DNA of 64,000 nucleotides, from assembly GCF_050920415.1 (NCBI RefSeq), contig NZ_CP169309.1; one strand, written 5' to 3'. The notes beneath the pieces were generated by a model. The model made no database searches and was not told the origin of the DNA. It was given only the letters and a program-made list of their open reading frames with translations. The DNA comes from Escherichia coli. GTDB lineage: Bacteria; Pseudomonadota; Gammaproteobacteria; Enterobacterales; Enterobacteriaceae. The position numbers and the translations under genes were made by a program. Positions 1-3,204 of the stretch are shown here, piece by piece (position 1 is the stretch's first letter; the number at the start of each line of letters is the position of its first letter).

Positions 1-1047
<1,047 letters not shown>

Positions 1048-1231: not shown

Positions 1232-1259
1232 ATATTACGCTTTCCTCTTTCAGAGTCAA
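1232..1259 (-). promoter_or_regulatory. rrn P2 promoter
   Basis: Minus-strand TTGACT, 16-nt spacer, TAATAT, about 190 nt upstream of the mature 16S 5' end. Confidence 0.8.
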
Positions 1260-1332: not shown

Positions 1333-1395
1333 TGGAGGCGCATTATAGGGAGTCGTTTCAGGAAGACAAGCGGAAAAATGCATTTTTATTTCAAC
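1333..1395 (-). promoter_or_regulatory. rrn P1 promoter with A/T-rich UP element
   Basis: Minus-strand CTTGTCT-N16-TATAATGCGCC (near-identical to the rrnB P1 core and GC-rich discriminator), preceded by an A/T-rich block (AAATAAAAATGCATTTTTCC). Confidence 0.85.
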
Positions 1396-1412
1396 CGCTC
1401 ATCTTTTAATCA

Positions 1413-1985
1413 TTACGCCGGTTTTTGCTGCTTTTTTATCGCTTGCGGCAGGTCTGCCAGGCTATTTAACACCCAATCCGCCGCGTTTTCTGCTTCAGGC
1501 GTAATAGGTTTTCCCGTACGCACCAGCACTTTTGTTCCCACGTTCGCCGCAGCCGCTGCCTGCATATCTTCTAATTTATCGCCCACCATATAAGAAGCAG
1601 CCATATCAATATGTAAATAATCGCGTGCTGACAAAAGCATCCCCGGATGTGGTTTGCGGCAATCGCAGACCTGACGAAACTCTTCAACACTACCCTGCGG
1701 ATGATGCGGGCAATAATAGATGCCATCCAGATCGACATCGCGGTCCGCCAGCGACCAGTCCATCCACTCGGTCAGCGTTTCAAACTGTGCTTCAGTAAAT
1801 TTACCGCGAGCAATGCCAGACTGGTTGGTTACTACCACCAGCGCAAAGCCCATTTTTTTTAGCTCGCGCATGGCGTCAATAACACCGTCGATAAATTCAA
1901 AGTTGTCGATCTCATGGACATAGCCGTGATCGACATTAATGGTGCCATCACGGTCAAGAAAAATTGCGGGTACGCTCTTCGCCAC
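1413..1985 (-). CDS. gmhB: D-glycero-beta-D-manno-heptose-1,7-bisphosphate 7-phosphatase (HAD family)
   Basis: 190-aa [20 protein letters not shown]... with HAD motif DxDGT. GTG start. Lies immediately upstream of the rrn promoters. Confidence 0.95.
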
Positions 1986-2172: not shown

Positions 2173-3204
2173 ATGATAAAACTTTCGAATATCACCAAAG
2201 TGTTCCACCAGGGCACCCGCACCATCCAGGCGTTGAACAACGTCAGCCTGCATGTGCCAGCTGGACAAATTTATGGCGTTATCGGTGCCTCAGGCGCGGG
2301 TAAAAGTACGCTTATCCGTTGTGTAAACCTGCTGGAGCGCCCAACCGAGGGTAGCGTGCTGGTCGATGGTCAGGAACTGACCACGCTGTCAGAATCCGAG
2401 TTGACCAAAGCTCGCCGCCAGATTGGTATGATTTTCCAGCATTTTAACCTGCTCTCTTCGCGCACTGTTTTTGGCAACGTGGCACTGCCGCTGGAGCTGG
2501 ACAACACGCCGAAAGACGAGATTAAACGTCGCGTGACAGAATTACTGTCATTGGTTGGTCTTGGCGATAAGCATGATAGTTACCCGTCTAACCTTTCCGG
2601 TGGGCAGAAACAACGTGTGGCGATTGCCCGTGCGTTAGCCAGCAATCCCAAAGTATTGCTGTGTGATGAGGCCACCAGCGCGCTGGACCCGGCAACAACA
2701 CGTTCTATTCTCGAACTGCTGAAAGACATCAATCGTCGTCTGGGTTTGACGATTCTGTTGATCACCCACGAAATGGACGTTGTGAAGCGCATTTGTGATT
2801 GCGTGGCGGTGATCAGTAATGGCGAGTTGATCGAGCAGGACACGGTAAGTGAAGTGTTCTCGCATCCGAAAACGCCGCTAGCGCAGAAGTTTATTCAGTC
2901 GACCCTGCATCTGGATATCCCGGAAGACTATCAGGAACGACTGCAAGCGGAACCATTCGCTGACTGCGTGCCGATGCTGCGTCTGGAGTTTACCGGTCAA
3001 TCGGTCGATGCCCCGCTTCTTTCTGAAACCGCGCGTCGTTTCAACGTCAATAACAACATTATTAGCGCGCAGATGGATTACGCCGGTGGCGTTAAGTTCG
3101 GCATCATGCTGACTGAAATGCACGGCACACAACAAGATACGCAAGCCGCCATTGCCTGGCTGCAGGAACACCATGTAAAAGTAGAGGTACTGGGTTATGT
3201 CTGA
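2173..3204 (+). CDS. metN: Methionine ABC transporter, ATP-binding subunit
   Basis: 343-aa ORF with Walker [10 protein letters not shown] and ABC signature LSGGQKQRV. Overlaps metI by 8 nt. Confidence 0.97.

Follow-up and report, generated by a model that had tools for sequence, protein, structure and literature searches.

The segment from position 1333 to position 1480 of the window (the whole stretch of Escherichia coli DNA analysed here, 64,000 nucleotides long) probably comprises the rrnH P1 promoter and the upstream activating region that belongs to it, set tightly against the end of gmhB, a gene read in the same direction, with Fis-type sites predicted at -71, -91 and -134 relative to the P1 start. 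The P1 promoters of rrn operons combine high, growth-rate-dependent activity with sensitivity to ppGpp/DksA, and site I, at -71, is the most important of their Fis sites. In the window, predicted site I lies between the gmhB stop codon and the UP element, and the two further candidates, sites II and III, lie inside the gmhB reading frame.

Results

All features of the gmhB-rrnH junction are on the minus strand (Table 1). The P1 start was placed by homology, through alignment of the discriminator with that of K-12 rrnB P1 (TATAAT-GCGCCTCC-A versus TATAAT-GCGCCACC-A), and since it is thereby inferred at 1333, position -n corresponds to window coordinate 1333+n. The core promoter is of the sigma-70 type, its register is that of the other six K-12 rrn P1 promoters, and the P1 -10 hexamer and the first three discriminator bases, GCG, are unchanged in 74/74 sequences. 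P2 lies about 110 nt downstream of P1, which fits the tandem P1/P2 layout (PMC4696680), and rrsH is truncated by the window edge, with its 5' two-thirds present and its mature 5' end at 1047. The UP element, whose function at rrn P1 promoters is contact with the alpha subunit's C-terminal domain according to the passages of PMC4696680 that deal with it, is mostly conserved among the 82 sequences compared, with variable columns at -55, -50 and -47.

Table 1 Window coordinates and supporting evidence for the features of the gmhB-rrnH junction
Feature	Window position	Position relative to P1 start	Strand	Evidence and details
rrsH, 5' part of the 16S rRNA gene	1..1047		(-)	Rfam RF00177, 999.6 bits; RefSeq annotation of identical records
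rrnH P2 promoter	1232..1259		(-)	-35 TTGACT at 1259-1254, -10 TAATAT at 1237-1232; consensus scan 9/12, 16-bp spacer
rrnH P1 core promoter	1333..1369		(-)	-35 TTGTCT at 1369-1364, 16-bp spacer, -10 TATAAT at 1347-1342; consensus scan 10/12
P1 discriminator GCGCCTCC	1341-1334		(-)	GC-rich; inferred start A at 1333, 9 nt after the -10
UP element, A/T-rich	1373..1393	-40 to -60	(-)	Sequence TGAAATAAAAATGCATTTTT at 1392-1373; palindrome AAAAATGCATTTTT at 1387-1374
Fis site I core GATTAAAAGATGAGC, predicted	1397..1411	centre -71	(-)	All published Fis rules met
gmhB stop codon TAA	1413..1415	-82 to -80	(-)	ORF list and sequence
Fis-like site II core GCAGCAAAAACCGGC, predicted	1417..1431	centre -91	(-)	gmhB codons 185-190
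Fis-like site III core GGGTGTTAAATAGCC, predicted	1460..1474	centre -134	(-)	gmhB codons 171-176 (W V L N S L)
gmhB, D-glycero-beta-D-manno-heptose 1,7-bisphosphate 7-phosphatase	1413..1985		(-)	190 aa, GTG start; ORF list, NCBIfam, RefSeq

The upstream gene is identified by curated-cutoff scores as encoding a HAD-IIIA heptose-1,7-bisphosphate phosphatase, with 286.1 bits against the NCBIfam equivalog NF006506 (cutoff 178) and 334.4 bits against TIGR00213 (cutoff 149.6), the latter covering residues 6-181 of GmhB. The same 1.2 kb is present in 5414 complete E. coli genomes, where it is annotated as metN, gmhB and 16S rRNA, and the K-12 order is gmhB (b0200) followed by rrsH (b0201). Of 5426 complete E. 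coli genomes, 5424 carry the stretch from -47 to -147 as a single copy. An initial sequence-only reading had placed the gmhB stop (1413) about 20 nt from the UP element; the gap measures 19 nt (1394-1412), with the coordinates exact to the base, and the adjacency that it described is borne out, rrnH P1 directly abutting gmhB.

To compare this junction across species, the GmhB protein was scanned against 100,044 species genomes, which returned 80 Enterobacteriaceae loci. In every one of these 80 loci, gmhB is directly followed by an rrn P1 promoter; every retrieved species thus carries an rrn operon downstream of gmhB, and the dual-use tests described below cover rrn-linked loci only. Together with K-12 and the window, the 80 species form a comparison set of 82 mutually related sequences. 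From gmhB into P1, these show zero indels over 652 nt despite up to 29% divergence, and the gmhB start codon and the P1 -10 lie the same distance apart (offset 637) in all sequences that reach the -10. In contrast, the metN-gmhB spacer is variable in length (185-190 nt). The gmhB/rrnH P1 arrangement is not a product of chance. Most of the retrieved contigs stop soon past gmhB, in the rrn promoter-leader region or at the start of the 16S gene, as is expected because rRNA repeats collapse.

The published rules for the Fis core comprise G at -7 and C at +7, a purine at -3 and a pyrimidine at +3, exclusion of A from -4 and of T from +4, and an A/T-rich centre (PMC3547798). We scored candidate sites with a heuristic position weight matrix (PWM) for Fis built from the published consensus, whose weights are our own approximation, and with a rule-based scan that is independent of these weights. 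In a positive control on the K-12 operons, the PWM recovers the rrnB P1 sites at exactly -71, -102 and -143, the three classical, footprinted Fis sites I-III, and no others upstream of the UP element; of the seven K-12 operons, six (rrnH, rrnB, rrnA, rrnC, rrnG and rrnD) have a -71 site by this matrix. Of the 640 registers between the gmhB start and P1, the published rules retain just three in half or more of the sequences, namely -134, -91 and -71, all of them within 70 bp upstream of the UP element. The Fis-site search that the sequence-only reading had proposed for this region yields, in other words, three candidate Fis-type registers.

In the window, one rule-compliant 15-mer is found per ~500 bp, or one per 143 bp when the rules are relaxed, and because the region of interest holds about 70 registers, two matches there versus one elsewhere in gmhB are modest evidence alone. 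The spacing from site I is 20 bp for site II and 63 bp for site III, near two and six helical turns, respectively. The disfavoured bases A at -4 and T at +4 occur in 0 and 0 of the 82 sequences at site I, in 2 and 1 at site II, and in 0 and 0 at site III. Fis-like sequence at the rrnB positions -102 and -143 is absent in rrnH, and sites at these positions were rejected, their scores lying far below threshold in every species compared. In the supplements of PMC3662779 and PMC3547798, the Fis ChIP and site tables gave no match to gmhB, rrsH or the site sequences.

Site I starts 2 nt past the gmhB stop and occupies the gap before the UP element; it is therefore noncoding in the window. In K-12, CAA replaces TAA at -82 to -80 and the next codon, TGA (-79 to -77), serves as the stop, which site I overlaps by 2 nt only. 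Site I scores 9.4 with the PWM, which ranks it among the top 0.01% of 15-mers in the window, and it shares its register with site I of rrnB, rrnA, rrnC, rrnG and rrnD. Among the 82 sequences, G-78, A-74, T-68 and C-64 are unchanged and positions -77 to -75 vary freely, so that G at -7, C at +7, the purine at -3 and the pyrimidine at +3 are each found in 82/82; at the centre (-2 to +2), at least four of five bases are A/T in 46/82 and three of five in the remaining sequences. As read from the alignment columns, this pattern at -71 is as expected of a Fis site. The sequence-only reading had located the Fis-binding region inside the last ~20 codons of gmhB, and this holds in part: the candidates at -91 and -134 lie within the last 23 codons, and the main site at -71 lies in the intergenic gap.

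The window sequence itself carries G-7 and C+7 at all three sites. At site II, G-98 (the third base of the Lys185 codon AAG) and C-84 are unchanged in 82/82 sequences, the relaxed Fis rules are satisfied in 95% of them, and the centre is an A-tract (A5) in which at least four of five bases are A/T in 82/82. The pyrimidine at +3 is present in 79/82, the purine at -3 in only 11/82, with the other 71 breaking that rule, and the PWM score is below 5 in E. coli itself. In 80% of the 82 sequences, site III complies with every Fis rule, and its median PWM score of 7.1 is the highest of the 640 registers; C-127 is present in 82/82 and G-141 in 72/82, the purine at -3 in 77/82 and the pyrimidine at +3 in 81/82, and at least four of the five central bases are A/T in 76/82.

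Next to site II, the end of the reading frame itself is mobile. GmhB ranges from 185 to 191 aa among the 82 sequences, and the sole cause of these length differences is that the stop codon moves. Its first base is at -88 in 52/82 sequences, at -82 in 11/82, including the window, and at -79 in K-12 only, and between genera it ranges from -97 to -79. In most genera, those with the stop at -88, site II takes its positions +3 and +4 from the TA of the stop codon. Codons 183-185 (A-AAA-AAG) were also considered as the place of a programmed frameshift, which was rejected because only 25/82 sequences have the first A.

Synonymous constraint at the gmhB 3' end was probed in two ways. In a bulk test, changes at synonymous third positions were counted by parsimony, using a metN plus gmhB tree. 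Four-fold sites in the last 20 codons change at 0.232 per sequence versus 0.241 in the rest of gmhB (p=0.37), and two-fold sites at 0.071 versus 0.142 (p=0.010), a reduction that arises from Lys184 (AAA in 80/81) and Lys185 (AAG in 76/76, zero changes). Across the 22 Lys columns of metN and gmhB, there are 0-20 changes per column (median ~8), and AAG makes up 32% on average. Within gmhB, synonymous conservation peaks at the 5' end, where the rate profile dips far more deeply than at the 3' end.

In the second test, a recoding null, the Fis score at each register was compared with its exact distribution under redrawn synonymous codons, using species codon usage and exact convolution; as the sequences are related, the recoding z values are effect sizes, to be read by their rank among control registers sharing that tree and not as independent tests. 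On average, z amounts to 1.82 at -91 and 1.60 at -134, values reached by 0% and 0.2%, respectively, of 470 control registers in other parts of gmhB (mean z 0.08, sd 0.47, maximum 1.69). A conserved Fis-like 15-mer in the middle of the gene, at -383, has a recoding z of 0.09, and the protein sequence therefore fully accounts for it. At the codon level, the columns that matter for the Fis rules fall in the tails of their amino-acid classes: the third base of Val172 is a purine in 94% of sequences (rank 5th of 41), the first base of Leu176 is C in 100%, and Asn174 is AAT in 88% (rank 3rd of 17).

On this comparison, the synonymous constraint is probably real but local, comprising two patches of ~15 bp and not the whole of the last 20 codons. 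The sequence-only reading had proposed dual coding and regulatory constraint on the stretch, to be seen as lower synonymous variability at the gmhB 3' end. What stands of this proposal is the motif-directed recoding at -91 and -134 and the lower variability at two-fold sites, carried by two Lys codons; a blanket constraint, which would also lower the variability at four-fold sites, does not stand. A motif-directed recoding test can thus detect constraint that a bulk comparison of synonymous rates misses.

The same data bear on whether site I is the only functional site, the features at -91 and -134 arising from A-tract curvature, from binding of H-NS or Lrp, or from constraint on the codons or protein of GmhB, an explanation that we consider unlikely. 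Genomic SELEX has placed H-NS on the rrnA, rrnB and rrnH promoters (PMC4696680), and PMC5110994 names both Lrp and H-NS among the proteins that bind rrn promoters. However, neither curvature nor H-NS would need a G and a C at fixed spacing, and the invariant bases are the exact Fis contacts G-7 and C+7, 14 bp apart. Site II does contain an A5 tract and violates the purine rule at -3, and AAA is the preferred Lys codon anyway; yet the third base of Lys185 is G in 82/82 sequences, set against the 32% average of AAG over the 22 Lys columns, and the forbidden A at -4 and T at +4 are avoided in 79-82 of 82 at all three sites. Site III, for its part, lies in the conserved HAD domain with fixed amino acids (TIGR00213 residues 6-181), but the recoding null already discounts both the amino-acid sequence and codon usage.

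It is considerably less probable still that there is no meaningful overlap, with the gmhB 3' end being ordinary coding DNA and the Fis-like matches being chance products of a degenerate motif. Although rule-compliant 15-mers are as frequent as given above, only 3 of the 640 registers are conserved as Fis-like, and these cluster just upstream of the UP element. The conserved 15-mer at -383, wholly explained by the protein sequence, speaks for this reading, whereas the z values at -91 and -134 are above those of 99.8-100% of the controls. At four-fold sites, the 3' end varies as much as the rest of the gene, but Lys185 shows zero changes in a gene pair whose other Lys columns have a median of about 8. 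Moreover, three to five Fis sites are reported per rrn P1, and the space outside gmhB would accommodate one at most.

Between gmhB and P1 (1333-1413), no minus-strand terminator-like hairpin followed by a T-run was found. As gmhB has no intrinsic terminator of its own in this interval, any transcription leaving gmhB would have to cross the Fis, UP and P1 region into the rrnH leader, and gmhB read-through into P1 is plausible. The region that such transcription would enter had been called the strongest promoter region of the cell, which is overstated, rrnH being the weakest of the seven rrn promoters in one reporter study (PMC4696680). The only stable RNA structure in the interval, in which -72 to -62 pair with -40 to -30 (-16 kcal/mol, z -2.57 versus shuffles, with 9 of 11 pairs kept in at least 85% of sequences), was considered as a hairpin reaching from Fis site I to the -35 that ends or stabilises the gmhB transcript, in which case gmhB transcription would not enter rrnH, and was rejected as extremely improbable: it is not terminator-like because no T-run follows the stem, no pair shows a compensatory change, the pair -71/-31 is broken in 56/82 sequences, and conservation of the arms has other causes, one arm being the right half of Fis site I and the other the -35 hexamer.

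Discussion

If rrnH P1 and its predicted Fis-type sites operate as rrn P1 promoters are known to, the alpha C-terminal domains of RNA polymerase would bind the UP element, and a Fis dimer at -71 would contact alpha and give most of the activation. The upstream sites would add less, whether by cooperative occupancy, by wrapping of the DNA, by competing with H-NS, or by insulation from transcription nearby. The coding sequence would fit both upstream sites by synonymous choice (Lys184 AAA, Lys185 AAG, Val172 GTR, Leu176 CTN, Asn174 AAT), and the poorly constrained C-terminal tail of GmhB, with its wandering stop, would also accommodate the sites.

In reporters, rrnH is reported to be the weakest rrn promoter, yet its operon is also reported to be the most induced under nutrient limitation. 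A further and rather doubtful suggestion is that the conserved GmhB tail (…IKKQQK…) is largely a regulatory by-product, its Lys and Gln codons being held by the Fis site and the A-tract and the stop sliding freely, and that read-through may shape the behaviour of rrnH.

Overlap of this kind has been described. Each rrn P1 is given three to five Fis sites upstream of the UP element in the relevant passages of PMC4696680, where gel shifts for rrnH are said to agree with the number from Hirvonen et al. 2001 (J Bacteriol 183:6305). That study, as the papers citing it describe it (PMC4696680, PMC5110994, bioRxiv 10.1101/2024.03.27.586983), mapped Fis binding and UP contributions at all seven rrn P1 promoters; its rrnH P1 is the same promoter as the one analysed here, and -91 and -134 are predicted positions from the present analysis. 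According to the account in bioRxiv 10.1101/2024.03.27.586983, murI contains both of the upstream Fis sites of rrnB P1, and purU contains one tyrT Fis site.

The rrnB/murI junction is similar to rrnH/gmhB in that a co-directional gene ends about 80 nt before the P1 start (last base of murI at -82; of gmhB at -77 in K-12 and -80 in the window), site I is at -71 in the same register, the UP element is at -40 to -60, and two upstream sites are in the coding region of the upstream gene, footprinted in rrnB and predicted in rrnH. The site II sequences also resemble each other (GCTCGAAAAACTGGC in rrnB, GCAGCAAAAACCGGC in rrnH). The two promoters differ in the positions of the upstream sites (-102 and -143 in rrnB, -91 and -134 predicted in rrnH) and in the -35 hexamer (TTGTCA in rrnB, TTGTCT in rrnH). 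At rrnA, hemG is likewise co-directional, with its last base at -86, and a strong site I is found at -71 (GAATAAAAAATGCGC, score 9.5), but the K-12 sequence offers only a weak heuristic candidate inside hemG, at -111. At tyrT/purU, too, the promoter serves a stable RNA, and of its three Fis sites one falls within a co-directional upstream reading frame; this promoter differs in driving a tRNA operon, not an rRNA operon. Among the other K-12 operons, clpB ends at -152 (rrnG), and the neighbours of rrnC, rrnD and rrnE are divergent.

Our literature search found no paper naming gmhB together with rrnH; papers that name gmhB and rrsH deal solely with gene conversion and with the leader's RNase III site. 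Given the rrnB/murI and tyrT/purU precedents and the 2001 study of Fis binding at rrnH P1, the finding is therefore one more instance of a described arrangement. The layout is already known in kind and essentially known for rrnH P1, and it is ordinary biology.

The comparison yields two precise site predictions, at -91 and -134. Constructs of the "rrnH promoter" need ~70 bp of gmhB to include all of the predicted Fis sites, and synonymous recoding or deletion of gmhB, as in lipopolysaccharide studies or genome recoding, can alter an rRNA promoter. The arrangement matters little beyond such bookkeeping; it is a clean, well-conserved case of a coding 3' end that doubles as a predicted activator-binding region.

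Fixed spacing between gmhB and rrn P1 and a mobile gmhB stop codon

Between the gmhB start codon and the start of rrn P1, 652 nt align without a gap in 82/82 sequences (80 Enterobacteriaceae gmhB loci, K-12 and the window), and this collinearity holds at divergence of up to 29%. The adjoining metN-gmhB spacer, by comparison, has a length range of 5 nt. Within this rigid frame, the gmhB stop occupies six different in-frame positions across Enterobacteriaceae, from -97 to -79 relative to the P1 start, with zero indels. In the window strain the gene closes with tandem stops (TAA TGA), whereas K-12 reads GCA CAA TGA (L081, the K-12 rrnH locus, 1901-1909); because TAA replaces CAA, GmhB has 190 aa in the window strain and 191 aa in K-12. 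The 190-aa protein with a TAA stop is also found in the other four Escherichia-labelled genomes with this stop (L001-L004), and GmhB of E. albertii (L005) has 190 aa too, but with a TGA stop. Only 19/5432 E. coli records match the 1.2 kb around this region at ≥99%, the best being strain MFDS1022581 at 100%, and the remainder match at 95-99%; these figures place the window in a lineage that has been sequenced less often.

Coordinates of the features discussed
Feature	Window	Relative to P1 start or gene
gmhB start codon to rrn P1 start	1333-1985	
gmhB end, GCG TAA TGA	1413-1418	
Segment compared with E. coli records	1000-2200	
Fis-like 15-mer GCATCTATTATTGCC	1716-1730	centre -383; gmhB offset 262-276
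Imperfect inverted repeat	1363-1405 (-)	AAGATGAGCGG, -72..-62; CCGCTTGTCTT, -40..-30
Palindrome AAAAATGCATTTTT	1374-1387	UP element
Synonymous conservation, gmhB 5' end	1930-1985	gmhB codons 1-18
Purine-ended valine codons	~3174-3190	metN codons 334-338

Sequence conservation within and beside gmhB

Synonymous sites of gmhB are most strongly conserved at the 5' end of the gene (z ~ -1.3 as a sliding mean), and this conservation is far stronger than any 3'-end signal. Translation initiation, or signals of the divergent metN-gmhB control region, may account for it. A conserved Fis-like 15-mer in mid-gene (median score 6.0) served as the internal negative control of the recoding null, in which synonymous codons are redrawn: with a z of 0.09, its match is fully accounted for by the amino-acid sequence. 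At the metN 3' end, valine codons are purine-ended in 96-99%, probably because metN overlaps the start of metI, located 8 nt inside metN in K-12.

Repeats in the promoter region

The arms of the imperfect inverted repeat pair the right half of Fis site I, the predicted intergenic Fis core, with a segment that includes the -35 hexamer. As RNA, the repeat would fold into a stem of 11 bp (-16 kcal/mol, z -2.57); this stem lacks a T-run and shows zero compensatory changes, so the repeat is probably incidental. The UP element also holds a perfect 14-nt palindrome, most columns of which are well conserved among the 82 sequences, with the central -50 and -47 variable.

Comparison of rrnH, rrnB and rrnA

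The K-12 rrn operons rrnH, rrnB and rrnA (L081, L082 and L083) are the three that have a co-directional upstream gene with its last base between -77 and -86. Genomic SELEX reportedly detected H-NS binding at the same three operons, which were also the three weakest rrn operons in a reporter assay (PMC4696680). That gene-end position, H-NS binding and reporter weakness single out the same three operons may be coincidence.
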